Of a stretch of DNA of 37,655 bases, positions 8,502 to 36,545 are shown in pieces; position 1 is the first letter of the stretch; every line of letters begins with the position of its first letter. The notes below the pieces were generated by a model that made no database searches, was not told where the DNA came from, and saw only the letters and a program-made list of their open reading frames with translations. Both the position numbers and the translations under genes were made by a program. Origin of the DNA: a virus (lineage: Duplodnaviria > Heunggongvirae > Uroviricota > Caudoviricetes); the IMG/VR virus record IMGVR_UViG_2939167301_000003. One strand, given 5' to 3'.

Positions 8502-8715
8502 TTTTTATCCTCTTACAGGTACTGCGTATTTTCATGAAAGGAGATCACTCAATAACTTCCATCGAGATCGGGTAATAACATTTGAACAGATCGCTGAATA
8601 ACATCGATGGAGATCACTTTTGACTCATTTTGTTATTCAGTGATCTCCATCAATGTTATTGGAACTTCACAGGTGTGTTGATCTGTATCTTTTGCCATTC
8701 CGGTAAAGGATACCT

Positions 8716-10257: not shown

Positions 10258-10268
10258 TACGGGATCCA

Positions 10269-11018
10269 ATGATGAATCATCTTTACGAACAACTGACCGC
10301 ACTTAAACTCACCGGCTTCCGTGATGCGCTTAAAAAGCAACTTGCTCAGCCGGGCACATACCAGGAGCTGGGCTTCGAAGAACGCCTGTCATTACTGACA
10401 GCAGAAGAACTAACCTGCCGTGAAAACAGGAAGGCAGAGCGTCTGATCAAACATGCACGGTTCAGACTTAATGCTGAGTTATCAAAGCTGGATTATCGTA
10501 ACAATAGAGGGCTGGACAGGGCCCTCATCCGTTCACTCAGTCAGGGAAACTGGTTAACCCTGAAACAAAATATTTTACTGACCGGGGCCACCGGCAGCGG
10601 TAAAACGTTCCTGGCATGTGCACTTGGTCATAATGCCTGCCGACAGGGATACAAGGTCTACTATTATCGCCTTAAAGCGCTGATGGAACAGTGCTATCAG
10701 GGGCATGCTGATGGAAGATACAGCAAACTTTTGACCAGGCTGAATAATAGCGATCTGCTGCTTCTGGATGACTGGGGGCTGGAACCTCTCTCATCAGAAC
10801 AGCGTAGCGACCTGCTGGAAATAGTGGATCTGATGTACCAACGAGGCTCAATCATCGTAGTGAGCCAGTTGCCGGTGGAAAACTGGTACAAAATGATCGG
10901 AGACTCCACACATGCGGATGCCATCCTAGATCGACTGGTTCATGGCAGTATCAAGATCGAACTTAAAGGAGAATCAATGCGGAAAATACAATCTCCGTTG
11001 ACCGAAGGAGATCAGTGA
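10269..11018 (+). CDS. istB: IS21-family ATP-binding helper IstB
   Basis: 249 aa with Walker A GATGSGKTF and Walker B LLLLDDWG, typical of IstB. Confidence 0.88.
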   Translation: MMNHLYEQLTALKLTGFRDALKKQLAQPGTYQELGFEERLSLLTAEELTCRENRKAERLIKHARFRLNAELSKLDYRNNRGLDRALIRSLSQGNWLTLKQNILLTGATGSGKTFLACALGHNACRQGYKVYYYRLKALMEQCYQGHADGRYSKLLTRLNNSDLLLLDDWGLEPLSSEQRSDLLEIVDLMYQRGSIIVVSQLPVENWYKMIGDSTHADAILDRLVHGSIKIELKGESMRKIQSPLTEGDQ

Positions 11019-11270
11019 AGGTAATTTAAAAACGGTTCTGTGAAAGTGACACGAACCGATCTCCATCGATGTTACTCACCGATCTCCTTCACGGTAATAC
11101 GCAGGTACATTAGTTTAATTGTTAACGCAGAATTATCATTACCATAACTTGCATTAAGTTGCATTACATTGCATTCATAAACGTTAGCTAGGGGCGAAGT
11201 CTGAGGTTTGATGGGCTATGGTGTCCCCTTTAATACGAGGTTGCATCAAAACCGCCCCATGAAGCGGGCG

Positions 11271-11458: not shown

Positions 11459-12493
11459 TCAGCCGTTGTCAGTGTCCAGTGAGTAGTTTTTAAAGCGGAT
11501 GACCTCCTGACCGAGCCAGCCGTTTATCTCGCGGATCCTGTCCTGTAGCGGGATAAGCTCATTGCGGACAAAGACCTTTGCCACTTTCTCAATATCTCCC
11601 AGTGACCCGACGTTCTCCGGCTTGCCGCCCATCAACTGAAAGGGGATGCGGTGCGCGTCCAGCAGGTCAGCGGCGCTGGCTTTTTTGATATTAAAAAAAT
11701 CGTCCTTCGTTGCCACTTCACTGAGCGGGATAATTTTAATGCCGTCAGCTTTCCCCTGCGGGGCATAGAGAAACAGATTTTTAAAGTTGTTGCGGCCTTT
11801 CGACTTAACCATGTTTTCGCGAAGCATTTCGATATCGTTGCGGTCCTGCACGGCATCGGTGACGTACATGATATATCCGGCATGAGCGCCGTTTTCGTAA
11901 TACTTGCGGCGGAACAGCGTGGCCGACTCATTCAGCCAGGCAGAGTTAAGGGCGCTCAGATATTCTGGCAGGCCGTACAGCTCCTGATTGATATCCGGCT
12001 CCAGCAGGTGAAACACGGAGCCGGGCGTGAAAGGTGTCGGCTCGTTGAAGGACGGCACCCACCAGTAAACATCCTCCTCCACGCCACGACGGGTATATTT
12101 TGCCGGTGAGGTTTCCAGTCTGATGACCTTACCGGTGGTGCTGTAACGCTTTTCCAGAAACGCATTACCGAACACCAGAAAATCCAGCACAAAGCGGCTG
12201 AAATCCTGCTGGGAAAGCCACGGATGCGGGATAAATGTTGAGGCCAGAATATTACGTTTGACGTAAATCGGTGAGCTGTGATGCACGGCAGCACGCAGGC
12301 TTTTTGCCAGACCGGTAAAGCTGACCGGTGGTTCATACCATCTGCCGTTACTGATGCACTCGACGTAATCCAGAATGTCACGGCGGTCGAGTACCGGTAC
12401 CGGCTCGCCAAAGGTGAATGCTTCCATTTTCGGGGCGCTGGCGGTCATTTTTTTGGCCGCAGGTTGCGGTGTTTTCCCTTTTTTCTTGCTCAT
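11459..12493 (-). CDS. Q: Capsid portal protein Q
   Basis: 344 aa, the exact size of P2 gpQ, in the P2 position at the left end of the late region. Confidence 0.9.
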   Translation of the reverse strand: MSKKKGKTPQPAAKKMTASAPKMEAFTFGEPVPVLDRRDILDYVECISNGRWYEPPVSFTGLAKSLRAAVHHSSPIYVKRNILASTFIPHPWLSQQDFSRFVLDFLVFGNAFLEKRYSTTGKVIRLETSPAKYTRRGVEEDVYWWVPSFNEPTPFTPGSVFHLLEPDINQELYGLPEYLSALNSAWLNESATLFRRKYYENGAHAGYIMYVTDAVQDRNDIEMLRENMVKSKGRNNFKNLFLYAPQGKADGIKIIPLSEVATKDDFFNIKKASAADLLDAHRIPFQLMGGKPENVGSLGDIEKVAKVFVRNELIPLQDRIREINGWLGQEVIRFKNYSLDTDNG

Positions 12494-14265
12494 CAGTAAA
12501 ACTCCAGAATGGTGGATGTCAGCGGGGTGCTGATACCGGCGGTGAGTGGCTCATTTAACAGGGCGTGCATGGTCGCCCAGGCGAGGTCGGCGTGGCTGGC
12601 TTCCTCGCTGCGGCTGGCCTCATACGTGGCGCTGCGTCCGCTGCTGGTCATGGTCTTGCGGATAGCCATAAACGAGCTGGTGATGTCGGTGGCGCTGACG
12701 TCATATTCCAGACAGCCACGGCGGATGACGTCTTTTGCCTTGAGCACCATTGCGGTTTTCATTTCCGGTGTGTAGCGGATATCGCGCGCGGCGGGATAGA
12801 ACGAGCGCACGAGCTGGAACACGCCGACACCGAGGCCGGTGGCATCAATACCGATGTATTCGACGTTGTATTTTTCGGTGAGTTTGCGGATGGATTCCGC
12901 CTGAGTGGCAAAGTCCATGCCTTTCCACTGGTGACGCTCAAGTATTCTGAATTTGCCACCGGCCACCACCGGCGGTGCCAGTACCACGCATCCGGCGCTG
13001 TCGCCACGGTGTGACGGGTCGTAACCAATCCATACCGGGCGGGAGCCGAACGGATTCGCGGCAAACGGCGCATAGTCTTCCCATTCTTCCAGCGTGTCGA
13101 CCATGCAGCGTTGCAGCTCCTCGAACGGGAACACCGACGCCTTGTCGTCAACAAATTCACACATGAACAGGTTTTTAAAATCGTCGGCGCTGTTTTCACG
13201 TTTGAGCTGCTCAATGTCGAACAGCGTGCAGCCGCCTTTCAGCGCGTCCTCAATGGTGACAATCTGCCGCCACTGGCCGTCTGCACAGAGAAGCCCACCG
13301 GCAAGGGCGTTATGACTGACGTCGATTTCCACGCGTTCGGCGGCGCTGGCGCGTCCCCGGTTGAACAGTTCACCCGACCAGAACGGGTAGGCGTCGTGCG
13401 CCAGCGTGGACGGGGTGGAGAAATAGGTCGAACGCAGGTGACTCTGTGAGGCCATACCTGATGCCACCTTACGCAGTACCTGAAAATTCGGGATCCAGAA
13501 AATCTCGTCGACGTACAGGTCGCCGTTATGGCTCTGCGCGGTGTTGGAGTTGGTGCCGAGAAAAATCAGTTTTGCGCCGTTATTGCCCAGGACAATCGGG
13601 TCACCGGTCAGGTCAACGTCAACCAGCCGGGCAAAGGCGATGATGTATTCGCGGAACACATACGCCTGCGTTTTACTGGCCGACAGAAAAATCTGGTTAT
13701 GACCGGTTTTCAGGGCGCGCAGCAGCGCCTCGCGGGAAAAATAAAACGTCGCGCCAATCTGGCGGGATTTCAGGATATCGCGGATGCGGTGCTCAAGCCC
13801 GGCGCGATACCAGTGCAACTGATATTCGAAAGACTGCTCAAAGAAAATCTGCTCCAGCTTTTCGATGGCCTCGTCACTGAAAAAATTCTTTTTCGGTTTG
13901 CGCCGCCCGCCTTTGTTGCGGTTAGCGACGTTCGGATTAAGGTCTGCCTCGTTGCCGGTCTGACTGTAACGGTTGACCCGTGCCAGTCGTTCAATCTGGC
14001 GTCCCAGCAGGTCAATTTCCTTGAAGTCACCGCCGGTTTTCTGCGGTTTGATGATGAGCTGGGTCAGCCGCGCTTCCAGACTCATTTCGACACGGCTGAT
14101 GGGGGCAACGCTGTCCCAGCCGTCGCGCTGTTTCCAGCTCTGCACCGTCGGGCGTTTCATCTGCAACATGGCGGCAATCTGCGGCACGGAAAATCCCTGC
14201 CAGTACAGCAGCGCCGCCTGACGACGCGGGTCGTGTAAAAGAGTGGTGTCTGTGGTGATGGTCAT
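12493..14265 (-). CDS. P: Terminase large (ATPase) subunit P
   Basis: 590 aa if started at MTITTDTTLL (P2 gpP is 590 aa). Divergent from O as in P2. Confidence 0.9.
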   Translation of the reverse strand: MTITTDTTLLHDPRRQAALLYWQGFSVPQIAAMLQMKRPTVQSWKQRDGWDSVAPISRVEMSLEARLTQLIIKPQKTGGDFKEIDLLGRQIERLARVNRYSQTGNEADLNPNVANRNKGGRRKPKKNFFSDEAIEKLEQIFFEQSFEYQLHWYRAGLEHRIRDILKSRQIGATFYFSREALLRALKTGHNQIFLSASKTQAYVFREYIIAFARLVDVDLTGDPIVLGNNGAKLIFLGTNSNTAQSHNGDLYVDEIFWIPNFQVLRKVASGMASQSHLRSTYFSTPSTLAHDAYPFWSGELFNRGRASAAERVEIDVSHNALAGGLLCADGQWRQIVTIEDALKGGCTLFDIEQLKRENSADDFKNLFMCEFVDDKASVFPFEELQRCMVDTLEEWEDYAPFAANPFGSRPVWIGYDPSHRGDSAGCVVLAPPVVAGGKFRILERHQWKGMDFATQAESIRKLTEKYNVEYIGIDATGLGVGVFQLVRSFYPAARDIRYTPEMKTAMVLKAKDVIRRGCLEYDVSATDITSSFMAIRKTMTSSGRSATYEASRSEEASHADLAWATMHALLNEPLTAGISTPLTSTILEFY

Positions 14266-14438
14266 GAATACCTCGCCGTGATGAATACACGGCAAGGCTA
14301 CTGAGTCGCGCCCCGCGATTCGCTAAGGTGCTGTTGTGTCAGTGATAAGCCATCCGGGACTGATGGCGGAGGATGCGCATCGTCGGGAAACTGATGCCGA
14401 CATGTGACTCCTCTAATCACTATTCAGGACTCCTGACA
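14266..14438. promoter_or_regulatory. Divergent late promoter region (P-Q leftward, O-N-M-L rightward), presumably Ogr-activated
   Basis: Intergenic between divergent P and O. In P2 this holds the Ogr-dependent late promoters; individual elements were not resolved here. Confidence 0.45.
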
Positions 14439-18780: not shown

Positions 18781-19206
18781 ATGAAGAAATTATCCCTTTC
18801 ACTGATGCTGAACGTGTCGCTGGCGCTGATGCTGGCACTGTCCCTGATTTACCCGCAGAGCGTGGCCGTCAGTTTTGTCGCTGCCTGGGCGATTCTGGCG
18901 ATGATTATTTGTGTGGTTGCCGGTGGTGTCGGCGTGTATGCCACGGAGTATGTACTTGAACGCTACGGGCGGGAGCTGCCACCGGAATCGCTGGCCGTGA
19001 AGATTGTCACGTCGCTGTTTTTGCAGTCGGTGCCGTGGTGCAGACGGGCGGCGGCTCTGGTAGTGATGGTGGCGACGTTTATCTCGCTGGTTGCCGCCGG
19101 GTGGATTTTTACTGCGCTGATTTATCTCGTGGCGTCGCTGTTTTTCCGGCTGATACGCACGGCCTGCCGTCAGCGTCTTGAGGGGCGGGAACTATGTCAA
19201 AGCTGA
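18781..19206 (+). CDS. lysA: Lysis timing protein LysA (membrane protein)
   Basis: 141 aa, strongly hydrophobic, in the P2 lysA position. Confidence 0.8.
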   Translation: MKKLSLSLMLNVSLALMLALSLIYPQSVAVSFVAAWAILAMIICVVAGGVGVYATEYVLERYGRELPPESLAVKIVTSLFLQSVPWCRRAAALVVMVATFISLVAAGWIFTALIYLVASLFFRLIRTACRQRLEGRELCQS

Positions 19207-19619
19207 TGATTGCACTGGTCGTGTTGTTATCGCTGGCGGTGGCGGGGCTGTTTCTGGTGAAGCATGAAAACGCCAGACTGCGCTACTCGCTGGACAGGGC
19301 GAACAGCGTCGCCAGCGGGCAGCAGACGACCATCACCATGCTGAAAAATCAGCTTCATGTTGCCCTCACCAGGGCAGACAAAAACGAGCTGGCGCAGGTG
19401 GCACTGCGTCAGGAACTGGAGAACGCCGCGAAGCGTGAAGCACAGCGCGAGAAAACCATCACGAGGTTACTGAATGAAAACGAAGATTTTCGCCGCTGGT
19501 ACGGCGCTGGCCTGCCTGATGCTGTGCGCCGGTTGCACCAGCGCCCGGCCTGCGCCGACGCCAGTGATTGTCCACAACGCCTGCCCGAAAGTGAGCCTTT
19601 GCCCGATGCCGGGCAGTGA
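19194..19619 (+). CDS. lysB: LysB (Rz-like spanin component)
   Basis: 141 aa with an N-terminal membrane anchor and coiled-coil-like body, in the P2 lysB position. Confidence 0.8.
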   Translation: MSKLMIALVVLLSLAVAGLFLVKHENARLRYSLDRANSVASGQQTTITMLKNQLHVALTRADKNELAQVALRQELENAAKREAQREKTITRLLNENEDFRRWYGAGLPDAVRRLHQRPACADASDCPQRLPESEPLPDAGQ

Positions 19620-19764
19620 CCCGGAGACGAACGGCGATTTAAGTGCTGATATCCGGCAGCTTGAGAACGCGCTGGCACGCTGTGCCAGCCAGGTAAAAAT
19701 GATTAAACACTGTCAGGACGAAAACGATGCTCAAACCCGACAGCCTGCGCAGGGCGCTGACTGA
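19474..19764 (+). CDS. lysC: LysC (Rz1-like outer-membrane lipoprotein spanin, embedded in another frame of lysB)
   Basis: 96 aa with a lipoprotein signal (MKTKIFAAGTALACLMLCAGC) and a Pro-rich body; overlaps the 3' end of lysB as in P2. Confidence 0.75.
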   Translation: MKTKIFAAGTALACLMLCAGCTSARPAPTPVIVHNACPKVSLCPMPGSDPETNGDLSADIRQLENALARCASQVKMIKHCQDENDAQTRQPAQGAD

Positions 19765-20194
19765 TGCCGTCACGGTGCTGAAAACTAACCCCGATATGCT
19801 GCGGATATTCGTGGATAACGGGAGTATTGCCTCCACACTGGCGACGTCGCTGTCATTCGAAAAGCGTTACACGCTCAATGTGATTGTGACCGACTTTACC
19901 GGTGATTTTGACCTGCTCATTGTGCCGGTGCTGGCGTGGCTGCGGGAAAATCAGTCCGACATCATGACCACCGACGAAGGCCAGAAAAAGGGCTTCACGT
20001 TTTATGCAGACATCAACAATGACAGCAGCTTTGATATCAGCATCAGCCTGATGCTGACCGAGCGCACGCTGGTCAGTGAGGTGGACGGCGCACTGCATGT
20101 GAAGAATATCCCGGAACCCCCGCCGCCGGAGCCGGTTACCCGCCCGATGGAGCTGTATATCAATGGCGAACTGGTGAGCAAGTGGGATGAATGA
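19727..20194 (+). CDS. R: Tail completion protein R
   Basis: 155 aa, the size of P2 gpR. Confidence 0.85.
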   Translation: MLKPDSLRRALTDAVTVLKTNPDMLRIFVDNGSIASTLATSLSFEKRYTLNVIVTDFTGDFDLLIVPVLAWLRENQSDIMTTDEGQKKGFTFYADINNDSSFDISISLMLTERTLVSEVDGALHVKNIPEPPPPEPVTRPMELYINGELVSKWDE

Positions 20195-20639
20195 GTTTAA
20201 GCGTTTTGAAGACCGGCTGGCCGGACTGACTGAATCGCTGTCACCGTCAGGGCGTCGGCGGCTGAGTGCCGAACTGGCGAAACGTCTGCGGCAGAGTCAG
20301 CAGCGTCGGGTGATGGCACAGAAAGCCCCGGACGGCACACCCTACGTGCCACGCCAGCAGCAGAGCGCCAGAAAAAAGACTGGTCGTGTTAAGCGAAAAA
20401 TGTTTGCGAAACTTATCACCAATCGTTTTTTGCATATCCGCGCCAGCCCGGAGCAGGCATCAATGGAATTTTACGGCGGAAAGTCACCGAAAATCGCCAG
20501 TGTGCATCAGTTTGGTCTGTCGGAAGAAACCCGGAAAGACGGTAAGAAAATTGATTATCCGGCGCGTCCCCTGCTCGGCTTTACCGGTGAGGATGTGCAG
20601 ATGATTGAAGAGATTATCCTGGCTCACCTCGACCGTTAG
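20187..20639 (+). CDS. S: Tail completion protein S
   Basis: 150 aa, the size of P2 gpS. Confidence 0.85.
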   Translation: MNEFKRFEDRLAGLTESLSPSGRRRLSAELAKRLRQSQQRRVMAQKAPDGTPYVPRQQQSARKKTGRVKRKMFAKLITNRFLHIRASPEQASMEFYGGKSPKIASVHQFGLSEETRKDGKKIDYPARPLLGFTGEDVQMIEEIILAHLDR

Positions 20640-20705
20640 TTGTGCCATTCCTGACACCTCATCGTCACATTGCCGCCGGTATGACCCGGCGGCATCCTTC
20701 CCGTT

Positions 20706-21341
20706 ATGAACACTCTCGCAAATATTCAGGAACTCGCGCGCGCACTGCGCAACATGATCCGCACCGGCATTATCGTCGAAACCGACCTTAATGCCGGTCG
20801 CTGCCGTGTGCAGACCGGCGGCATGTGCACCGACTGGCTTCAGTGGCTGACCTGTCGTGCCGGGCGTTCGCGCACATGGTGGGCACCTTCCGTGGGGGAA
20901 CAGGTGCTGATTCTGGCCGTGGGTGGTGAACTCGACACGGCGTTCGTTCTGCCGGGGATTTATTCCGGCGATAGCCCCGCGCCGTCTGCGTCGGCGGATG
21001 CCCTGCATATCCGTTTCCCTGACGGGGCGGTGATTGAGTATGAACCCGAAACTAGTGCACTCACGGTAAGCGGAATTAAAACGGCCAGCGTGACGGCTTC
21101 TGATTCTGTTACTGCCAGGGTGCCTGTGGTCATGGTGAAAGCATCAACCCGCGTCACCCTGGACACACCGGAGGTGGTCTGCACCAACAAGCTGATCACC
21201 GGCACGCTGGAAGTGCAGAAGGGCGGGACGATGCGCGGCAACATTGAACACACCGGCGGTGAACTCTCATCAAACGGTAAGGTACTGCATACCCATAAAC
21301 ACCCAGGAGACAGCGGCGGCACAACCGGGAGTCCTCTATGA
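20706..21341 (+). CDS. V: Baseplate spike protein V
   Basis: 211 aa, the size of P2 gpV, first gene of the baseplate operon. Confidence 0.88.
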   Translation: MNTLANIQELARALRNMIRTGIIVETDLNAGRCRVQTGGMCTDWLQWLTCRAGRSRTWWAPSVGEQVLILAVGGELDTAFVLPGIYSGDSPAPSASADALHIRFPDGAVIEYEPETSALTVSGIKTASVTASDSVTARVPVVMVKASTRVTLDTPEVVCTNKLITGTLEVQKGGTMRGNIEHTGGELSSNGKVLHTHKHPGDSGGTTGSPL

Positions 21342-21685
21342 CAGCACGTTATCTCGGAATGAATCGCAGTGATGGCCTGACTGTCACTGACCTTGAGCAT
21401 ATCAGCCAGAGTATCGGCGATATCCTGCGCACACCGGTCGGCTCACGGGTGATGCGTCGTGATTACGGCTCGTTGCTGGCATCAATGATTGACCAGCCGC
21501 AGACCCCGGCGCTTGAGTTGCAGATTAAGGTCGCCTGTTACATGGCGGTGCTGAAATGGGAACCCCGCGTCACCCTGTCATCTGTCACCACTGAGCGCAG
21601 TTTTGAGGGGCGAATGACGGTCACGTTAACCGGTCAGCACAACGACACCGGCCAGCCACTTTCGTTAACCATCCCTGTGAGTTGA
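21338..21685 (+). CDS. W: Baseplate protein W (gp25/lysozyme-like fold family)
   Basis: 115 aa, the size of P2 gpW. Confidence 0.88.
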   Translation: MTARYLGMNRSDGLTVTDLEHISQSIGDILRTPVGSRVMRRDYGSLLASMIDQPQTPALELQIKVACYMAVLKWEPRVTLSSVTTERSFEGRMTVTLTGQHNDTGQPLSLTIPVS

Positions 21686-21689
21686 AACC

Positions 21690-22598
21690 ATGCCGATTAT
21701 CGACCTGAACCAGCTACCCGCACCGGATGTGGTCGAGGAGCTGGACTTTGAAACCATTCTTGCCGAACGCAAGGCGACACTGATTTCCCTTTACCCGGAA
21801 GACCAGCAGGAGGCGGTCGCCCGTACCCTGACGCTGGAATCTGAGCCTCTCGTCAAACTGCTGGAGGAAAATGCTTATCGTGAGCTTATCTGGCGTCAGC
21901 GTGTGAATGAGGCCGCACGGGCGGTGATGCTGGCCTGTGCAGCCGGTAATGACCTTGATGTGATTGGTGCCAATTACAACACCACACGCCTGACTATCAC
22001 CCCGGCAGATGATTCGACCATCCCGCCGACACCGGCAGTGATGGAGTCTGACACCGATTATCGTCTGCGTATTCAGCAGTCATTTGAGGGCTTAAGCGTC
22101 GCCGGGTCGGTGGGAGCCTATCAGTATCATGGTCGCAGTGCCGACGGGCGTGTCGCGGATATCTCTGTCACCAGTCCGTCTCCGGCCTGCGTCACCATCT
22201 CCGTGCTGTCACGTGAAAATAACGGTGTCGCATCCGAAGACCTGCTGGCCGTGGTGCGTAACGCCCTGAATGGCGAGGACGTCAGACCGGTGGCCGACCG
22301 CGTGACCGTGCAGTCCGCCGCCATCGTTGAATACCAGATAAACGCCACGCTTTACCTTTACCCTGGTCCCGAAAGCGAACCCATTCGCGCTGCCGCCGTG
22401 AAAAAACTGGAAGCGTATATCACGGCACAGCACCGGCTGGGGCGCGACATCCGTCTGTCTGCCATTTATGCCGCTTTGCATGTGGAAGGCGTGCAGCGTG
22501 TCGAGCTGGCCGCACCACTGGCCGACATTGTGCTCAACAGTACGCAGGCGTCTTTCTGCACCGAATACAGCGTCGTGACCGGAGGCTCGGATGAGTGA
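21690..22598 (+). CDS. J: Baseplate wedge protein J
   Basis: 302 aa, the size of P2 gpJ. Confidence 0.88.
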   Translation: MPIIDLNQLPAPDVVEELDFETILAERKATLISLYPEDQQEAVARTLTLESEPLVKLLEENAYRELIWRQRVNEAARAVMLACAAGNDLDVIGANYNTTRLTITPADDSTIPPTPAVMESDTDYRLRIQQSFEGLSVAGSVGAYQYHGRSADGRVADISVTSPSPACVTISVLSRENNGVASEDLLAVVRNALNGEDVRPVADRVTVQSAAIVEYQINATLYLYPGPESEPIRAAAVKKLEAYITAQHRLGRDIRLSAIYAALHVEGVQRVELAAPLADIVLNSTQASFCTEYSVVTGGSDE

Positions 22599-23202
22599 TT
22601 CGCGCCTGCTGCCGACCGGCTCATCACCGCTTGAAGTTGCCGCCGCAAAAGCCTGTGCGGAAATTGAAAAAACGCCGGTCAGTATTCGTGAACTGTGGAA
22701 CCCGGATACCTGTCCGGCAAATCTGCTGTCGTGGCTGGCGTGGTCATTTTCGGTTGACCGCTGGGATGATAAGTGGCCGGAAGCGACAAAACGCGCTGTT
22801 ATCCGCGATGCGTATTTCATTCACTGCCATAAGGGCACTATAGGCGCAATCCGGCGTGTGGTGGAGCCGCTCGGCTATCTGATTGAGGTGAGGGAGTGGT
22901 GGCAGCTCAACGAGGAACCGGGGACGTTCCGCATCGTTGTTGGCGTGCTTGAGCAGGGTATTACCGAGGAAATGTATCAGGAGCTGGAGCGTCTCGTTGC
23001 TGATGCAAAACCTGCAAGCCGCCATCTGACGGGACTGGCTATCAGTTTAAGTACAACCGGCAACATTTTTGCCGGTGCGGGATGCTATCACGGCGACGCC
23101 CTGACGGTTTATCCCTACACCCCGGAGGCCATTATTGTCGGAGGGGATTATTTCCCGGCCTCGGCCATTCATTTAATTGATAACCTGAGAGTAAACGCAT
23201 GA
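22591..23202 (+). CDS. I: Baseplate protein I
   Basis: 203 aa (P2 gpI is 176 aa); position between J and H. Confidence 0.8.
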   Translation: MSDSRLLPTGSSPLEVAAAKACAEIEKTPVSIRELWNPDTCPANLLSWLAWSFSVDRWDDKWPEATKRAVIRDAYFIHCHKGTIGAIRRVVEPLGYLIEVREWWQLNEEPGTFRIVVGVLEQGITEEMYQELERLVADAKPASRHLTGLAISLSTTGNIFAGAGCYHGDALTVYPYTPEAIIVGGDYFPASAIHLIDNLRVNA

Positions 23203-24494
23203 CAGTGAAATACTACGCCATTCTGACTAATCAGGGCGCAGCACGGCTGGCTAACGCGACGATGCTTGGCAGTAAGCTGAATCTGACGCAAATGGCCGTT
23301 GGTGATGCGAATGGTGTCTTGCCGACACCAGACCCGGCACAGACAAAACTGATTAATCAGAAACGCATTGCACCGCTGAATCTTCTGAGTGTTGACCCGA
23401 ACAACCAGAGCCAGATTATTGCGGAGCAAATCATCCCTGAGAACGAGGGCGGATTCTGGATCCGTGAGATTGGGCTTTATGATGATGAAGGCGTACTCAT
23501 TGCGGTGGCCAACTGCCCGGAAACGTACAAACCGCAGTTACAGGAAGGCAGTGGTCGTACCCAGACTATCCGCATGATTCTGGTTGTCACGAATATCGAA
23601 GCCATCACGCTGAAAATCGACCCGTCGGTGGTACTGGCGACCCGTAAATATGTGGATGATGAAGTCCTGGAATTAAGGCTGTATGTGGATGACCAGATGA
23701 GAAACCACATTGCCGCACAGGATCCTCATACCCAGTATGCACAGAAACATAATCCGACATTTACCGGAGAACCAAAAGCCCCGACGCCTGCCGCAGGAAA
23801 TAACACCACGCGGATTGCGACCACTGAGTTTGTTCAGGCCGCTATTACCGCTCTGATTAACGGCGCGCCAGCCACGCTGGACACACTGAAAGAAATTGCC
23901 GCAGCCATTAACAATGACCCGAAATTCAGCACCACTATTAACAATGCGCTGTCAGGTAAGCAGCCACTGGATGAGACGCTGACTCATTTGAGCGGAAAGG
24001 ATGTTGCCGGCCTTCTCGCATACCTTGGTTTGGGAGAAACGATAAATAGAGCCTCCAGAGCTATGCAGAAATCGGCTAATGGATCTGATATTTCTGATGT
24101 ATCAGCCTTCCGAAATGCGCTCCAGTTAGGGACCGCTGCAACACGAGATGTTGGAGCAGATAATGCCTCGAAGTTACTGGATTTAGACAGCTTCAGGTCA
24201 ATGATGTCAGGTAATGGCTACATCTACATTCCATGCATTGCGACGACAGGAAACCCGGTGAAACTTATGTTGCAGTGGGGAACGGTGGCAACACAAAAGG
24301 GAGCTGATGCTGGATATGCCTTACCATTTGCTTTTCCCTATGCAGGCTTGTTTGCGACCGGAAACCGTGGAACATCTGGCTACAATGCCGCGATGAATGT
24401 GCGTATTGCCAGCAGAACGCATATCAGTATTCAGAACTGGTCGCCATCCGGAGAGGGCACCGAAGATTGTTGTTTTATCGCGCTGGGGTATTAA
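23199..24494 (+). CDS. H: Tail fibre protein H (constant N-terminal part plus the currently attached variable C-terminal module)
   Basis: N-terminus MTVKYYAILTNQGAARLANA typical of P2-family H. 431 aa, shorter than P2 H. Contains the inversion crossover site at 24013-24038. Confidence 0.88.
   Translation: MTVKYYAILTNQGAARLANATMLGSKLNLTQMAVGDANGVLPTPDPAQTKLINQKRIAPLNLLSVDPNNQSQIIAEQIIPENEGGFWIREIGLYDDEGVLIAVANCPETYKPQLQEGSGRTQTIRMILVVTNIEAITLKIDPSVVLATRKYVDDEVLELRLYVDDQMRNHIAAQDPHTQYAQKHNPTFTGEPKAPTPAAGNNTTRIATTEFVQAAITALINGAPATLDTLKEIAAAINNDPKFSTTINNALSGKQPLDETLTHLSGKDVAGLLAYLGLGETINRASRAMQKSANGSDISDVSAFRNALQLGTAATRDVGADNASKLLDLDSFRSMMSGNGYIYIPCIATTGNPVKLMLQWGTVATQKGADAGYALPFAFPYAGLFATGNRGTSGYNAAMNVRIASRTHISIQNWSPSGEGTEDCCFIALGY
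24013..24038. other. Left 26-bp invertase recombination site (hix/gix-like), inside H
   Basis: TTCTCGCATACCTTGGTTTGGGAGAA; its reverse complement shares TTCTCCCAAACCAA with the right site. The H protein loses P2-like constant sequence at exactly this point (LAYLGLGE). Confidence 0.75.
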
Positions 24495-24496
24495 GA

Positions 24497-24913
24497 ATGA
24501 ATAAATTTTATAAAGGCTCTTTCTATCCGAAAGCACTAAAAGAGGTATATATCAGCGCCGGTTCATGGCCTGAAAATGGCGTTGATGTTGATGATGAAAC
24601 AATAGCAATTTACACAGGCGTAGCGCCAGAAGGCAAAACGCTGGGGGCTGATAAAAATGGTAATCCTGCATGGATTGATATCCCGCCACTCTCCGCTGAA
24701 CAACAGATTATTCAGGCTGAACAGAAAAGAACGGTATTGCGTTCAATGGCTGATAAGGAAATAGTCTGGAGACAGGATGCTTTTGATGCGGAAATCGCGA
24801 CGGCAGAAGAAACCGCCGCGTTGTCTGAATGGAAAAAATATCGGGTCTTACTGATGCGCGTTGATACATCAAATCCCGTCTGGCCTACGCCTCCGGGGGA
24901 GCAGGCCAATTGA
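24497..24913 (+). CDS. G: Tail fibre assembly chaperone G (module for the current orientation)
   Basis: 138 aa ORF immediately after H, inside the invertible segment. Confidence 0.8.
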   Translation: MNKFYKGSFYPKALKEVYISAGSWPENGVDVDDETIAIYTGVAPEGKTLGADKNGNPAWIDIPPLSAEQQIIQAEQKRTVLRSMADKEIVWRQDAFDAEIATAEETAALSEWKKYRVLLMRVDTSNPVWPTPPGEQAN

Positions 24914-25505
24914 TATCCGGCGCGGTGCTGGTATCAGTTACCGTCACCGCGTCAATGTAATCCAGCACGACGTTAAGCCGGGTGGTTTCTGTCTGCGTCA
25001 GTTTTCGCCCGGCCTGCAATTTCAGTTGAATCAGATTAATGGAAGCCATTGCAGTATCAATCAGTGACTGTCGCTGTGTTTCTGCCGCGCCTACTGCGGC
25101 GCTATGCTGTGCCTCAGTATCTGTCACCCATTTCTCACCATCCCATTCATCGTATGGCGTTAACGGGGCGACAGTGGTTGTGTTTTCAGGGTAATCCCCC
25201 GGAGTGGTGATTTCTGCTGCCTCACGGGTTTCTGTGTTATAGACTGTCTCACCCCGATGGTCCGGCACGTACTCCCACGCGGTCAGGTCGGCTGTGCGGC
25301 AAATTGCATAACCAGCCCGCCTTTCCCCGGGGGCATCAGTGCATGAATGTGCAGGAAGGCCAACGCCCACAGCCAGATATTCGGTTGACGTGCAAAGGTA
25401 TTCCCGCGTCTTATTATCGTAGCTGTGGACAACAACCTCTCCTGCAACTGTTGCCAGCCGCGATTCATTCAGCACCGCTGTAGTCATGGTTTTCTTGCTC
25501 ATCAT
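24885..25505 (-). CDS. Alternative tail fibre assembly chaperone (G'), inverse orientation
   Basis: 206 aa convergent ORF inside the invertible segment; C-terminal region resembles tail-fibre assembly proteins. Confidence 0.75.
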   Translation of the reverse strand: MMSKKTMTTAVLNESRLATVAGEVVVHSYDNKTREYLCTSTEYLAVGVGLPAHSCTDAPGERRAGYAICRTADLTAWEYVPDHRGETVYNTETREAAEITTPGDYPENTTTVAPLTPYDEWDGEKWVTDTEAQHSAAVGAAETQRQSLIDTAMASINLIQLKLQAGRKLTQTETTRLNVVLDYIDAVTVTDTSTAPDINWPAPPEA

Positions 25506-25977
25506 GCAGCCCTTACGATGTAGTTAAATGCAATGTTACGTGGCCTTGCATAACCCAGATACTGAATCCCCCAGGCTCCCACTGGAACGGGGTTCCAGAT
25601 ATGTTCTGTAGGTATACTTTTCGCTCTGAGAATATCTGAATTGGTTTCAGTTTTATCCCATCCCAGCAGGGCAATGTCGTTTACCGAAAACTGCACCACG
25701 CTGTCGGGTGATATATTGGCTTCCTGAACCAGATAAGAGCCTTTTTGCCACGACAACAACGTCCGGCTACTGTCCACTCCGCGCCCGTCATCCCAGCCAC
25801 GAATAAATTCACCACGTAAATCAGGCAATATATTTGTCGGGTAAGCCTTTGCCAGTTCCGGGTATTCTTCAGCAGAAAATGCCGCCCCGTTGCATTTCAG
25901 CCAGCCTGTTGGCAGTGTGGCTGAAGGCCACGGAACAGGCACACCAACGGGTAATACAGAGCCTTCTCCCAAACCAA
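25502..25977 (-). CDS. Alternative tail fibre C-terminal module (H'), promoterless; expressed only after inversion fuses it to the constant part of H
   Basis: Minus-strand reading frame runs through the right crossover site. Encodes a tail-fibre tip-like sequence (VPVGVPVPWP...LKCNGAAFSAEEYPELA). The track Met at 26017 is probably artefactual. Confidence 0.7.
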
Positions 25978-25989
25978 CGTTTATGAAAA
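25964..25989. other. Right 26-bp invertase recombination site (hix/gix-like)
   Basis: TTCTCCCAAACC-AA-CGTTTATGAAAA, which fits the hixL pattern TTCTTGAAAACC-AA-GGTTTTTGATAA as recalled; inverted relative to the site in H. Confidence 0.75.
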
Positions 25990-26158
25990 TGCAGAGATAA
26001 CGGGCAAGTGGCATCATCTCCGGTTTTTATTCAGGGGGATGCTCATGCTTATTGGCTATGTACGCGTGTCAACAAATGTAAGCGTCGTCTCAGCACCGTC
26101 TGGCAGATCCTGAAATTCCTGAGAGAATAGTGGACACCAAATATGGTGGACGCAATCC

Positions 26159-26563
26159 ATGAAATCATTAACCGCAGTGCGTAAAAAAAGCCCTAATTAT
26201 CCCGTTGAGTTCAAAATCAAAATGGTTGAACTCTCGCATCGACCAGAGATCTCCGTAGCGCAACTCGCTCGTGAGCATGGGATCAACGATAATTTGCTGT
26301 TCAAGTGGCGCCAGTACTGGCGCGAAGGAAAACTACGTCCTCCTTCAACAACAGAAAACAACGTGCCTGAGCTGCTCCCGATAACACTTGATGCCGAAGA
26401 TGTTGTCCCTACAACCTCCCCCCGGTCACAACCTGTAGCTGCTGCGACACCTGAATCACTCAATATCAGCTGTGAAGTGACGTTCCGGCACGGATCACTC
26501 CGTCTGAATGGTGCCATCAGCGAAAATATCCTGAACCTGCTGATACGGGAGCTCAAACGTTGA
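26159..26563 (+). CDS. IS66-family Orf1 (TnpA, HTH protein)
   Basis: 134 aa, first of three ORFs; start of the next ORF overlaps its stop. Confidence 0.8.
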   Translation: MKSLTAVRKKSPNYPVEFKIKMVELSHRPEISVAQLAREHGINDNLLFKWRQYWREGKLRPPSTTENNVPELLPITLDAEDVVPTTSPRSQPVAAATPESLNISCEVTFRHGSLRLNGAISENILNLLIRELKR

Positions 26564-26907
26564 TCCCATTACCATCAGGGACAAAGATCTGGCTGGTCGC
26601 TGGCATCACCGATATGAGAAACGGCTTCAACGGCCTGGCGGCAAAGGTGCAGACGACGCTGAAAGACGATCCGATGTCAGGTCACGTTTTTATCTTCCGT
26701 GGGCGTAATGGCAGTCAGGTAAAGCTCCTCTGGTCTACCGGCGATGGACTGTGTCTGCTGACCAAACGGCTGGAGCGCGGCCGCTTCGCCTGGCCGTCAG
26801 CCCGGGATGGCAAAGTGTTCCTCACACCGGCACAGCTGGCGATGCTGCTGGAAGGTATCGACTGGCGGCAGCCTAAAAGACTGCTTACGTCCCTGACTAT
26901 GTTGTAA
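26560..26907 (+). CDS. IS66-family Orf2 (TnpB)
   Basis: 115 aa; the MIPLPSG...IWLVAGITDMR N-terminus is typical of IS66 Orf2 as recalled. Confidence 0.85.
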   Translation: MIPLPSGTKIWLVAGITDMRNGFNGLAAKVQTTLKDDPMSGHVFIFRGRNGSQVKLLWSTGDGLCLLTKRLERGRFAWPSARDGKVFLTPAQLAMLLEGIDWRQPKRLLTSLTML

Positions 26908-26955
26908 GCCTCTTTATCCTGGTCGACGCTGAATGAGCCTGGTAATATACCCGGT

Positions 26956-28491
26956 ATGAGCAGCTCACTTCCTGACGATATCAATGCACTGAAACGTCTC
27001 CTTGCCGAACAGGAGGCGCTGAACCGTGCCCTGCAGGAAAAGCTGAACGAGCGTGAACGCGAAATAGACCATCTGCAGGCACAGCTGGATAAGCTGCGCC
27101 GGATGAACTTCGGCAGCCGCTCGGAAAAAGTCTCCCGTCGTATCGCACAGATGGAAGCTGACCTGAAGGCACTTCAGAAAGAAAGTGATACCCTTACCGG
27201 TCGGGTTGACGACCCGGCCGTGCAGCGCCCGCTGCGTCAAACCCGCACCCGCAAACCGTTCCCCGAATCACTCCCCCGCGATGAAAAACGGCTGCTGCCG
27301 GCAGCGTCATGCTGCCCGGAATGTGGAGGCTCGCTGAGCTATCTGGGTGAGGATGCCGCCGAACAGCTGGAGCTGATGCGCAGCGCCTTCCGGGTTATCC
27401 GGACTGTACGTGAAAAGCATGCCTGTACTCAGTGCGATGCCATCGTGCAGGCCCCCGCGCCTTCACGGCCCATCGAGCGGGGTATCGCAGGACCGGGGCT
27501 GCTGGCCCGCGTGCTGATCTCAAAGTATGCAGAGCACACCCCGCTGTACCGCCAGTCTGAAATGTACGGCCGCCAGGGCGTGGAGCTGAGTCGTTCACTG
27601 CTGTCGGGCTGGGTGGATGCATGCTGCCGGCTACTGTCACCGCTGGAAGAAGCGCTTCAGGACTATGTGCTGACTGACGGTAAGCTCCATGCTGATGACA
27701 CGCCTGTCCCGGTGCTGTTGCCAGGCAATAAGAAAACGAAGACCGGGCGGTTATGGACCTACGTTCGTGACGACCGTAACGCCGGGTCAACGCTGGCGCC
27801 GGCGGTGTGGTTCGCTTACAGCCCGGACAGAAAAGGCATCCATCCGCAGACCCATCTTGCGGGGTTCAGTGGTGTACTGCAGGCGGATGCATACGCCGGG
27901 TTCAACGAGCTGTACCGGGATGGCCGGATAACGGAAGCCGCCTGTTGGGCTCACGCCCGCCGTAAAATCCACGATGTGCACGTTCGCACCCCGTCAGCCC
28001 TGACGGAGGAAGCGCTGAAACGGATCGGCGAACTGTACGCCATCGAGGCAGAGATAAGGGGAATGACGGCGGAGCAGCGCCTTGCCGAACGTCAGTTGAA
28101 AACGAAACCGCTGCTGAAATCCCTGGAAAGCTGGCTGCGTGAAAAGATGAAAACCCTGTCGCGACACTCAGAACTGGCGAAAGCGTTCGCATACGCCCTG
28201 AACCAGTGGCCGGCGCTGACGTACTATGCAGATGATGGCTGGGCTGAGGCGGACAATAACATCGCTGAAAATGCGTTGCGGATGGTCAGTCTGGGCCGCA
28301 AAAACTACCTGTTCTTCGGTTCGGATCATGGAGGAGAGCGGGGAGCGCTGCTGTACAGCCTGATCGGGACGTGCAAACTGAACGGAGTGGAGCCAGAAAG
28401 CTACCTCCGCTATGTCCTTGACGTCATAGCCGACTGGCCGATAAACCGGGTCGGCGAACTGCTCCCCCTGGCGCGTAGCACTGCCGACTGA
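26956..28491 (+). CDS. IS66-family transposase (Orf3 / TnpC)
   Basis: 511 aa with an N-terminal leucine-zipper-like coiled coil, a CxxC zinc finger (CPECGG...CTQC) and a DDE-type core. Confidence 0.88.
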
Positions 28492-29160
28492 ATAACACAT
28501 CCCCGTCAATACGGTTCTTGCTGCACGCTTACCAACAAATGACCAGAACACGGAATTGCAGCGTAACGCGCTGGAGTGCGCAGGATGTGAGCTGATTTTT
28601 GAGGATAAAATCAGCGGCACGAAGTCCGACAGGCCGGGGCTGAAAAAACTGCTCAGAACATTATCGGAAGGTGACACTCTGGTAGTCTGGAAGCTGGACC
28701 GGCTGGGGCGTAGTATGCGGCATCTGGTCATTCTGGTTGAGGAGCTGCGCGAACGCGGCATTAATTTTCGCAGCCTGACGGATGCCATTGATACCAGCAC
28801 GCCGATGGGGCGTTTTTTCTTTCATGTGATGGGTGCCCTGGCTGAAATGGAGCGAGAACTCATTGTCGAGCGGACACGCGCCGGACTGGAGGCGGCCAGA
28901 GCCAAAGGTCGTATTGGTGGCAGACGTCCGAAACTCACCGCGAGTGAGTGGGAGCAGGCCGGGCGGTTGCTGGCTGCAGGGGAATCACGTCAACGCGTGG
29001 CACTGATTTTTGATATTGGCCTGTCCACGCTCTATAAAAAATTCCCCGCCTCAGTGACAAAAAATAAATTGTGTCATCCCTTAGCCAACCGGGACAAATA
29101 GCCTGACATCTCCGGCACAACTAAAAATATCACTCACCCATTAACCACGGAGTTAAACGG

Positions 29161-30351
29161 ATGAGTGACTATCATCACGGCGTGCAGGTGCTGGAGATTA
29201 ACGACGGCACCCGCGTCATTTCCACCGTATCCACTGCCATTGTCGGCATGGTCTGCACGGCCAGCGATGCGGATGCGGAAACCTTCCCCCTCAATAAACC
29301 GGTGCTGATTACCAATGTGCAGAGCGCAATTGCAAAGGCTGGTAAAAAAGGCACGCTGGCGGCGTCGTTACAGGCCATCGCCGACCAGTCAAAACCGGTC
29401 ACCGTTGTCGTGCGTGTGGAAGACGGCACCGGTGACGACGAGGAAACGAAACTCGCGCAGACCGTTTCCAATATCATCGGCACCACCGACGAAAACGGTC
29501 AGTACACCGGACTGAAAGCCCTGCTGGCGGCGGAGTCGGTAACCGGTGTTAAGCCGCGCATTCTCGGTGTGCCGGGACTGGACACCAAAGAGGTTGCCGT
29601 CGCACTGGCATCAGTCTGTCAGAAGCTGCGCGCTTTCGGGTATATCAGCGCATGGGGCTGTAAAACCATTTCCGAGGTGAAAGCCTACCGCCAGAATTTC
29701 AGCCAGCGTGAGCTGATGGTCATCTGGCCGGATTTCCTCGCATGGGATACGGTCACCAGTACCACCGCCACCGCGTATGCCACCGCCCGTGCGCTGGGTC
29801 TGCGCGCTAAAATCGACCAGGAGCAGGGCTGGCATAAAACACTGTCCAACGTTGGGGTGAACGGTGTTACCGGCATCAGCGCATCTGTATTCTGGGATTT
29901 GCAGGAGTCCGGCACCGATGCTGACCTGCTGAATGAGTCAGGCGTCACAACGCTGATTCGCCGTGACGGTTTCCGCTTCTGGGGTAACCGTACCTGCTCT
30001 GATGACCCGCTGTTCCTCTTTGAAAACTACACCCGCACCGCGCAGGTGCTGGCCGACACGATGGCTGAGGCGCACATGTGGGCGGTGGACAAGCCCATCA
30101 CCGCAACGCTGATTCGCGACATCGTTGATGGCATCAATGCCAAATTCCGAGAGCTGAAAACAAACGGCTATATCGTGGATGGCACATGCTGGTTCAGCGA
30201 AGAATCCAACGATGCGGAAACCCTCAAGGCCGGAAAACTGTATATCGACTACGACTATACACCGGTGCCTCCTCTCGAAAACCTGACCCTGCGCCAGCGT
30301 ATTACCGATAAATACCTGGCAAATCTGGTCACCTCGGTTAACAGCAATTAA
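29161..30351 (+). CDS. FI: Tail sheath protein FI
   Basis: 396 aa, the exact size of P2 gpFI. Confidence 0.92.
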   Translation: MSDYHHGVQVLEINDGTRVISTVSTAIVGMVCTASDADAETFPLNKPVLITNVQSAIAKAGKKGTLAASLQAIADQSKPVTVVVRVEDGTGDDEETKLAQTVSNIIGTTDENGQYTGLKALLAAESVTGVKPRILGVPGLDTKEVAVALASVCQKLRAFGYISAWGCKTISEVKAYRQNFSQRELMVIWPDFLAWDTVTSTTATAYATARALGLRAKIDQEQGWHKTLSNVGVNGVTGISASVFWDLQESGTDADLLNESGVTTLIRRDGFRFWGNRTCSDDPLFLFENYTRTAQVLADTMAEAHMWAVDKPITATLIRDIVDGINAKFRELKTNGYIVDGTCWFSEESNDAETLKAGKLYIDYDYTPVPPLENLTLRQRITDKYLANLVTSVNSN

Positions 30352-35903: not shown

Positions 35904-36545
35904 ATGGAAAAAGTTATAATTGAGCTTGATAATCGTTGGGAGTTAGCTGATTTCGCGGTCTTAACGAAAGAGTATTTGCAGCTATATGGTTTTTTTTATG
36001 GCCTAAAAGGAGGATCAAGAGGATATTCAACAATGCCTTGGGAGGGTGGGCACAGTGTGGTGAACTTTTTTAGAGGGGCTTACAGTGCGACTCCACCAGA
36101 TTTACGTCCTGTAGTGAAAAAAATTCAGTATGCCTCTCCTGGCTTTATTGAATTGTCTGCTCTTATTGATATCTCTTGGCAGATTGCTGAGTTAGTTACT
36201 GCTGTTGGTGGAAGTATTCTGGCTGCCAACAAAGTTTACGATCAGGTGATGCGTACATATCGACAAAGAGAATGGGCAAAGTTGAAATCAGAGAAGCTGC
36301 GTATACAGAATCAAATTAAAGAGATTGAACTTGTTTCTGACGCAGTTAAATCACTTGAATCTGTGATGGCACTTAGTGAAGAACAACGTAAAAACTTGGT
36401 TCAACTATCGGGGGCAGATGAACTGGTTCAGTTAAAGATACTTTTGGCTGTTTACCGACGGTTATCTCCTCTTGTTGAGTTGCAAAACAGCGGGAAAGCT
36501 AATTTTTCTGCTGGGAAAAATAAAAATTTAAAAGCGTCCGATTAA
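35904..36545 (+). CDS. Hypothetical 213-aa protein, AT-rich orphan between ogr and fieF
   Basis: Intact ORF, visibly more AT-rich than neighbouring phage and host genes. Followed by a strong intrinsic terminator. No recognisable motif; the C-terminal half looks coiled-coil-like. Confidence 0.55.
   Translation: MEKVIIELDNRWELADFAVLTKEYLQLYGFFYGLKGGSRGYSTMPWEGGHSVVNFFRGAYSATPPDLRPVVKKIQYASPGFIELSALIDISWQIAELVTAVGGSILAANKVYDQVMRTYRQREWAKLKSEKLRIQNQIKEIELVSDAVKSLESVMALSEEQRKNLVQLSGADELVQLKILLAVYRRLSPLVELQNSGKANFSAGKNKNLKASD

Follow-up and report, generated by a model that had tools for sequence, protein, structure and literature searches.

Evidence for a Pin-type inversion switch at the tail-fibre tip of a P2-like prophage whose invertase gene is split by an IS66-family element

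Introduction

The invertases PinE, Gin, Cin and Hin cross-complement, and the enhancer of the Hin/Gin/Cin/Pin systems is a 65-bp cis element with two Fis sites, situated within the invertase gene towards its 5' end. In the G segment of phage Mu (Gin) and the C segment of phage P1 (Cin), the N-terminus of S is constant, the sets Sv/U and Sv'/U' alternate behind it, and the gene for the invertase lies just outside the segment. The P segment of e14 in E. coli K-12, which is served by PinE, is arranged as a fibre tip and chaperone, then chaperone' and tip', then the invertase gene. The tail-fibre inversion design has also been documented for P2-like prophages. For example, inversion was verified by sequencing and PCR (PMC4272514), invertases with inverted neighbours were noted in the Z/fun hotspot (bioRxiv 10.1101/2024.10.15.618418), and the P2-like prophages of EPEC E2348/69 contain one locus with three repeats and four variants. 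The locus described here leaves the understanding of such systems unchanged.

The locus was found in the window, which refers to the whole 37,655-nucleotide stretch of viral DNA analysed. It is very probably a switch of the Pin type, which exchanges the tail-fibre tip of a P2-like prophage by site-specific inversion and whose invertase gene has been split by an insertion sequence. In the proposed mechanism, a small serine invertase encoded directly right of the segment would bind both 26-bp sites, cut their 2-bp cores and flip the 1.95-kb segment. The constant 275-residue N-terminal part of H would be followed either by tip A and chaperone A, the state of the window, or by tip B and chaperone B, and progeny phage would carry one of two receptor-binding tips. 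The IS66-family insertion after codon 11 strips the catalytic serine from the protein body and also lies within the predicted proximal Fis site.

The layout is the same as that of the e14 P segment, and the relationship extends to the proteins (PinE 87.5%, TfaE 76% with chaperone B, StfE 55% with tip B). However, the two differ in several respects. First, the e14 segment belongs to a lambdoid remnant, in which the fibre gene is truncated, whereas the segment here lies within a full P2-type H gene. Secondly, StfP and TfaP are unrelated at the DNA level to tip A and chaperone A. Third, the P segment is 1797 bp long (PMC12529663), compared with 1951 bp between the cores here. Lastly, an IS interrupts the invertase gene in the present locus. 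The Mu and P1 systems share the mechanism, and Gin is 78% identical to the invertase found here, but their segments are about 3 kb rather than 1.95 kb and the backbone here is P2-like, not that of Mu or P1. Phage pro483 shares the H-to-FI gene order, carries identical sites at the corresponding position in H and has an annotated intact 'DNA invertase', although its tip A and chaperone A are different ones. The invertase in the window is IS-inactivated, unlike those of the pro483 and EPEC P2-like loci, and only two sites are present, in contrast to the three repeats in EPEC E2348/69.

Results

The top inverted repeat returned by a repeat finder was 24010-24038 with 25964-25992 (29 nt, 79% complementary, 1925 nt apart). 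It contains the two inverted 26-bp sites with matching cores that a sequence-only reading of this DNA had placed at 24013-24038 and 25964-25989. The left site (pixL-like, 24013..24038) reads TTCTCGCATACC-TT-GGTTTGGGAGAA, has its core at 24025-24026 and lies within the H reading frame. The right site (pixR, 25964..25989) reads TTCTCCCAAACC-AA-CGTTTATGAAAA with its core at 25976-25977; this AA corresponds to TT in the sense of the left core. Each site of the inverted pair has two imperfect 12-bp half-sites around a 2-bp core (12 + 2 + 12 bp), and the half-site consensus TTNTCNNA(A/T)AC(C/G) fits all four half-sites. The 14-mer TTCTCCCAAACCAA, common to both sites, occurs exactly twice in the 37.6-kb window, once per strand and with no mismatch, while shuffled sequences gave a mean of 0.35 matches with up to 2 mismatches. 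Only two site matches are present in the whole window, which rules out a shufflon with an Rci tyrosine recombinase and a multiple-inversion system of the Min/p15B type, each of which would need three or more crossover sites and give more than two arrangements.

Phage pro483 and strain 720632 have the left site in identical form, and its inner half-site and core match those of e14 pixL exactly. For the right site there is full identity with e14 (pixR of the K-12 P segment), pro483 and 720632, and the AA/TT core is found in e14 as well. The Mu gix sites, TTATCCAAAACC-TC-GGTTTACAGGAA, differ from the present sites in both core dinucleotide and half-sites. From these comparisons the sites are assigned to the pix type, which replaces the earlier hix/gix-like designation.

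The fibre gene H (23199-24494, plus strand) encodes 431 aa in the window orientation, with an N-terminal PF12571 domain and a gp53-like C-terminus. Its constant N-terminal part, a P2 H homologue which extends to the crossover (23199..24024, plus strand), contains PF12571 at residues 1-150 and has 97.9% DNA identity to P2 over 23199-23951, the first 753 nt of H. The currently expressed variable tip A (24039..24494, plus strand, 151 aa) has the gp53-like C-terminal domain PF21882 and PHROG tail-fibre matches, and its cassette is 92% identical to one in the C segment of the P1-like phage vB_EcoM-813R1. It is followed by chaperone A, the tail-fibre assembly G homologue (24497..24913, plus strand, 138 aa; PF02413 Caudo_TAP, E = 1e-31; phrog_188). 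The minus strand encodes a silent tail-fibre assembly protein, chaperone B (24885..25505, 206 aa; PF02413 Caudo_TAP; 76% identical to e14 TfaE by blastp), and the silent, promoterless variable tip B (25502..25963, 153 aa; tail-collar PF07484; 55% identical to e14 StfE). These are the two convergent tip and chaperone sets that had been described between the sites, and all four ORFs are supported by Pfam. No NCBIfam model is specific to the invertase, the fibre or the chaperones, and a promoter and terminator scan of 22500-29300 gave hits no more numerous than in shuffles. The GC content falls to 0.45-0.50 across the cassettes, which is not diagnostic. From their domain differences, tips A and B are assumed to differ in receptor specificity and host range.

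The tip B reading frame extends from 25977 down to 25502 on the minus strand and requires inversion to become fused in frame with the constant part of H. The in-silico flip produced an in-frame alternative fibre of 433 aa with PF12571 and a Collar domain, followed by an overlapping chaperone start. Depending on the orientation, the constant 5' coding part continues in frame into one or the other 3' part, with products of 431 aa and 433 aa.

The gene order V-W-J-I-H-G...FI-FII, according to the RefSeq annotation of the identical M217 region, is that of a P2-like (Peduovirus) tail module. The segment lies between G and FI, the Z/fun cargo position named in the earlier reading and a hotspot with reported tail-fibre swaps and invertases (bioRxiv 10.1101/2024.10.15.618418). 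The surroundings bear on the possibility that the host has taken over the segment of a decaying prophage, one orientation giving the cell a protein of fibre origin as protection against other phages. StfE2 from the homologous e14 P segment is reported to do exactly so (PMC12529663), and StfE and TfaE have relatives here in tip B (55%) and chaperone B (76%). In addition, two IS elements lie in the prophage, most of which is missing in a sublineage. However, the complete P2 structural gene set still surrounds the segment, H retains its full length and the usual baseplate-attachment domain at its N-terminus, and the StfE2-equivalent ORF here is only a promoterless cassette. Host takeover is considered very improbable, and a phage fibre switch remains the preferred reading.

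The homology of H to that of pro483 spans 23199-24041 at 97% identity and ends there, and the cassette homologies of the P1-like phage and of phi458 begin at 24021 and 24025. By these limits the sites coincide with the constant/variable boundary of H, as expected from the earlier reading, and are also module boundaries.

The inverted orientation was sought by comparative genomics. The in-silico flipped sequence of 2902 nt matched three complete E. coli genomes (EJN001, EBJ001 and 11899A_LBHALD) at 100% and strain 720632, in which the recombinase is intact, at 99.9%. The inversion is the sole difference between EJN001 and the window over 10.9 kb, and its breakpoints fall within the 14 nt shared by the sites. 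RefSeq annotates a fibre CDS of 433 aa (WP_069067655.1) at the H position in the flipped genomes. This evidence on orientation comes from the assemblies of related genomes, from which we infer inversion in the window's own strain. Genome 11899A_LBHALD is flipped, with its prophage split at the IS and with rRNA and tRNA fragments alongside, and its evidence is weak. The RefSeq 171-aa 'phage tail protein' across the right site is an artefact of the switch.

The homology of the P1-like phage and phi458 cassettes, which starts exactly at the left site, could also be read as meaning that the inverted repeats are mere scars of cassette exchange between phages and that the segment never inverts. This can be practically discounted, as the two orientations occur in otherwise identical prophages with the breakpoints lying within the 14-nt core common to the sites, the reading frame is perfectly preserved across the junction in the flipped state, and a Pin/Gin-family invertase gene adjoins the segment. 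An invertible segment of the Mu G or P1 C design in a P2 backbone, as first proposed, is borne out by the flipped form in nature, the adjoining invertase and the P2-type H.

The invertase gene starts at 26045, 55 bp right of the segment, and is not intact in the window, an IS66-family element being inserted after codon 11. The 5' fragment (26045..26077, plus strand) contains codons 1-11, MLIGYVRVSTN, including the catalytic Ser9 in alignment with Gin structures 3UJ3 and 4M6F. The 3' part (28541..29101, plus strand) contains codons 12-197 without a catalytic serine of its own; its translation, ...ARLPTNDQN..., has Pro in the Ser9 position. The rejoined ORF (26045-26077 + 28541-29101) contains PF00239 Resolvase and PF02796 HTH_7 and matches the two Gin structures with E = 7e-95 and with Ser9 aligned. 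It is 100% identical to the intact recombinase of 720632, 96% to the intact pro483 invertase, 87.5% to PinE and 77.7% to Gin. By homology, the gene adjoining the segment encodes the predicted cognate small serine invertase of the Hin/Gin/Cin/Pin family. Because it adjoins the segment, a compatible invertase from outside, which the sequence-only reading had called for, was originally unneeded; that reading had overlooked the gene at 26045, which was later disrupted by the IS66 element. A RefSeq 200-aa 'recombinase family protein', whose start lies within the IS and which has no catalytic serine, is likewise an artefact of the switch.

The IS66-family element is ISEc22-like (26078..28532, plus strand, 2455 bp), encodes tnpA, tnpB and a transposase, and has the ends GTAAGCG...CGCTTAC. 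An 8-bp target duplication, CAACAAAT, was read directly at 26070-26077 and 28533-28540. The ORFs match Pfam HTH_Tnp_1, TnpB_IS66 and DDE_Tnp_IS66 and NCBIfam NF033517, and RefSeq flags the transposase as frameshifted. The element is missing from the otherwise near-identical prophage of strain 720632. The split after codon 11 separates the catalytic serine from the protein body.

The IS probably also damages the predicted proximal Fis site of the recombinational enhancer. Five invertase genes were compared, and all have a conserved G-N13-C 15-mer, GT(G/A)TCAACAAATGAC, at nt 22-36. The IS junction lies inside this 15-mer, 101 bp from the right-site centre, and IS sequence takes the place of 4 of the 15 bp in the predicted proximal Fis core. 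The putative remnant of the Fis-dependent enhancer (28533..28600, invertase gene nt 26 to about 90) has been moved 2.45 kb away from the right site by the IS. Its placement follows the general description in PMC3798978 and the familiar hin enhancer, a 65-bp element approximately 100 bp from a hix site (PMC3798978).

The IS junction is common to 80 E. coli genomes, in which 59 have the window orientation, three are flipped and 18 have neither orientation beside the IS. In the one of these 18 that was examined, 51008369SK1, the segment was lost in an ISEc12-associated deletion. The tip-A orientation is almost always found, and the switch is no longer self-driven and is largely locked. It is not absolutely locked, because three IS-bearing genomes are flipped. 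At least one flip occurred after the IS had killed the invertase, in the EJN001/EBJ001 pair, and possibly another in 11899A_LBHALD.

These flips raise the alternative that the switch still operates at a useful rate in the window's strain, turned in trans by another cellular recombinase. The three flipped genomes have the identical IS-disrupted invertase, the sites are identical or nearly identical to the e14 pix sites, and PinE, PinQ and PinR are all reported to invert a segment flanked by TTGGTTTGGGAGAAGG and CCTTCTCCCAAACCAA (PMC12529663); the e14 P segment, reportedly inverted by PinQ/PinR, carries the same repeats. An enhancer can act from many kb away (PMC3798978). Invertase homologues were identified by blastn in 4677 of 5426 E. 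coli genomes, a count which is blind to PinQ/PinR-type genes (K-12 pinR is 38% identical and gives no blastn match). However, the orientations are split 59:3 rather than near evenly, the proximal Fis site is probably damaged by the IS, and deletion of pinE in K-12 locks the P segment despite pinQ and pinR (PMC12529663). EJN001 itself lacks e14, Rac, Qin and any other intact Pin/Gin-like gene detectable by blastn. In this genome, blastn for invertase-like loci identified only the broken gene and a 168-nt pinH-like remnant beside ypjA; there was no e14 at icd, no Rac at ttcA and no Qin at ydfJ, and the lambdoid prophage located at potC contains no pin gene and its fibre region is broken. The sole EJN001 plasmid, pNDM5 IncX3, encodes one 220-aa 'recombinase family protein'. 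Operation in trans at a useful rate is thus considered unlikely, and a switch largely locked by the IS is preferred.

Discussion

For the flips in the three IS-bearing genomes, one speculation, to which we give little weight, is that a distantly related, unrecognised recombinase in ST167-like strains may serve pix-type sites in trans, and that the host might exploit the orientation of the fibre cassette of a decaying prophage, as was proposed for e14 StfE2.

The importance of the locus lies mainly in annotation and in phage host-range work. In induction or engineering of this prophage, a single fibre type carrying tip A is to be expected as long as no invertase is provided. The 80 genomes of the IS-locked lineage also constitute a natural experiment on the rate at which an orphaned pix-type segment is flipped in trans.

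Gene organization and other cargo

The window contains a P2-like prophage. For the identical stretch in E. coli M217, RefSeq places the baseplate genes V, W, J and I ahead of a "phage tail protein" (H, the P2-type tail-fibre gene; 23199-24494, plus strand), which is followed by a pair of tail-fibre assembly genes, another "phage tail protein," an IS66-like element, a "recombinase family protein" and the sheath and tube genes. H combines an N-terminal fibre domain of the P2 type with a gp53-like C-terminus, the two small ORFs between the recombination sites are both Caudo_TAP chaperones, and the minus-strand tip contains a tail-collar domain. The arrangement proposed in the sequence-only reading, in which a current plus-strand set (tip A and chaperone A) faces a silent minus-strand set (tip B and chaperone B), was thus borne out by the ORF positions and the expected domains. 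The 171-aa RefSeq "phage tail protein" WP_001333405.1 (25502-26017, minus strand) is the promoterless tip-B cassette plus a spurious N-terminal extension, which crosses the right recombination site and heads toward the invertase promoter region.

Several other features were recorded. An 827-aa DEAD/DEAH-box helicase (6018-8501, minus strand) occupies the P2 old/tin cargo position and is a full-length match to PDC-S28, a PADLOC candidate defence family (E = 0). Between it and the portal gene Q lies a second IS of the IS21 family (8523-11101; IstA, 8716-10257; IstB, 10269-11018), annotated as ISEc12 in a relative; this copy is absent from EJN001, one of the genomes with a flipped segment. The EJN001 annotation flags the terminase ATPase gene as frameshifted; its window counterpart (12493-14295) is an uninterrupted 600-aa ORF, and the two differ in this region by one gap. 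The prophage adjoins fieF-pfkA, and a protein of 213 aa encoded between ogr and the host's fieF (35904-36545, plus strand) matches PADLOC PD-T4-10_B (E = 1e-34), while a Pfam search of it gave no match. This protein is probably the cargo of the third P2 hotspot.

Inversion of the tail-fibre segment

When 24025-25977 was inverted in silico, H stayed in frame across the junction of ...LAYLGLGE and GSVLPVGVPVPWPS..., giving a 433-aa protein that ends in a stop codon overlapping the second chaperone's start. The flipped artificial sequence (2902 nt) was searched against 5,426 complete E. coli genomes and was matched at 100% over its full length in EJN001, EBJ001 and 11899A_LBHALD, and at 99.9% in 720632, a strain whose near-identical prophage lacks the IS66-family element. 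At the position of H, the matching genomes have a RefSeq fibre CDS of 433 aa (WP_069067655.1). Direct comparison of the window with EJN001 gave 100% identity over 19199-24038 and 25964-30100, with the stretch between 24038 and 25964 reverse-complemented; the alignments overlap solely in the 14 nt shared by the sites. Because the C-terminal domains are unrelated, it is reasonable to infer that the two tips would differ in receptor specificity.

The best inverted repeat within 22000-28000, as located by a repeat finder, is 24010-24038 / 25964-25992. It contains the left 26-mer (24013-24038; TTCTCGCATACC-TT-GGTTTGGGAGAA) and the right 26-mer (25964-25989; TTCTCCCAAACC-AA-CGTTTATGAAAA), whose common 14-mer occurs only twice in the window, on opposite strands. 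These had been called hix/gix-like: the inverted 26-bp pair stands, but the likeness to gix does not, as both half-sites and the core dinucleotide are different in the gix sites of Mu, whereas the right site is identical to that of the K-12 e14 P segment. At the left sites, the window and e14 have the inner half-site and core in common. The published e14 repeats, TTGGTTTGGGAGAAGG and CCTTCTCCCAAACCAA (2025 paper, PMC12529663), match the window over 14 and 16 nt.

The H gene of pro483 is 97% identical until 24041 and unrelated beyond. Homology to the cassettes of the P1-like phage vB_EcoM-813R1 and of phage phi458 begins at 24021 and 24025, respectively. The sites thus mark the constant/variable boundary in all three comparisons. 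Absence of the inverted orientation, or sites out of register with this boundary, had been named as findings that would count against an invertible segment; given the flipped genomes and the boundary at the sites, the proposal therefore withstood both.

The tip A and chaperone A cassette (24021-25404) is 92% identical to the C-segment cassette of vB_EcoM-813R1 and 98% identical to part of phi458 (spans compared: window, 24021-25404; locus L021, 3501-4883; locus L020, 2700-4419). Since homology to both phages begins at the crossover point, fibre cassettes are common to P1-like and P2-like inversion segments.

Relation to known systems

The Mu G/Gin and P1 C/Cin systems share mechanism and gene logic with this segment, in agreement with the suggestion of a Mu or P1 design in a P2 backbone, here within a P2-type H; e14 P/PinE is the closest of the known systems. 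The database record of pro483 has the same arrangement within a P2-type H gene, together with an intact "DNA invertase" and sites identical to these. In addition, sequencing and PCR have shown that P2-like prophages of EPEC undergo inversion (PMC4272514), and a 2024 survey reported invertases with inverted neighbouring genes at the P2 Z/fun hotspot (bioRxiv 10.1101/2024.10.15.618418). For these reasons, the type of system is already known, including within a P2-type H, and the local twists are an IS-inactivated invertase and a few flipped descendants.

The split invertase gene

The sequence-only reading was right about the segment but overlooked the adjacent invertase. Its ORF starts at 26045, 55 bp right of the segment, reads MLIGYVRVSTN and is broken where GTAAGCG..., one terminus of an IS66-family element, sets in at 26078. 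This element encodes tnpA, tnpB and a DDE transposase and extends to 28532, with an 8-bp duplication (CAACAAAT) on both flanks; the frame resumes at 28541 with DQNTELQRNAL... and ends at 29101. RefSeq treats the IS66-family transposase (26956-28495) as frameshifted in M217, whose copy is 100% identical; in the window its ORF has 511 aa and retains the full set of IS66 transposase domains.

The rejoined invertase (197 aa) has Resolvase and HTH_7 domains, matches Gin crystal structures (E = 7e-95) with its catalytic Ser9 aligned, and is identical to the intact recombinase of 720632 (100%), with 96% identity to pro483, 87.5% to PinE and 78% to Gin. As read from the sequence, the cognate invertase is dead in the window, because the serine codon remains with an 11-codon stub, parted from the body of the gene, and the downstream piece has Pro at that position. 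The 200-aa RefSeq "recombinase family protein" WP_062914736.1 (28499-29101, plus strand) begins inside the right end of the IS and, by the same reading, is an annotation artefact of the split gene.

Orientation in the IS-bearing lineage

The exact stub/IS junction is present in 80 genomes, with the window's orientation adjoining in 59, the flipped orientation in three and neither arrangement beside the IS in the remaining 18. In the one of these 18 examined, 51008369SK1, there is an ISEc12-associated deletion that reaches from gene A almost up to the left edge of the right site; this deletion, bordered by an ISEc12 copy, takes most of the prophage, the invertible segment included. The 59:3 ratio suggests that the switch is essentially locked in the IS-bearing lineage.

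Unless the IS struck the same 8 bp twice, the segment must nevertheless have flipped after this insertion. In EJN001, blastn for invertase-like loci found only the broken gene and, next to ypjA, a remnant of 168 nt, and none of the e14, Rac and Qin prophages was present; thus, no candidate for the flip was found among these. The one plasmid of this strain encodes nothing of this type beyond a 220-aa "recombinase family protein." Possible sources are invertase left over when the IS inserted, a phage or plasmid present only transiently, or a distant serine recombinase not visible to blastn. Invertase homologues occur in 4677 of the 5426 genomes.

The predicted enhancer

The hin enhancer is 65 bp long, with one Fis site per end, lies about 100 bp from one hix site and works over distances of many kb (PMC3798978). 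In the window, 101 bp separate the IS junction from the centre of the right site, and the junction falls inside a G-N13-C 15-mer, GT(G/A)TCAACAAATGAC (nt 22-36 of the invertase gene), conserved in all five invertase genes compared. This 15-mer probably corresponds to the proximal Fis site in hin. The target duplication leaves 11 of its 15 bp in the downstream copy, with the 5' G lost. The IS insertion likely damages the predicted proximal Fis site of the enhancer; if so, invertase supplied in trans would also work less efficiently.
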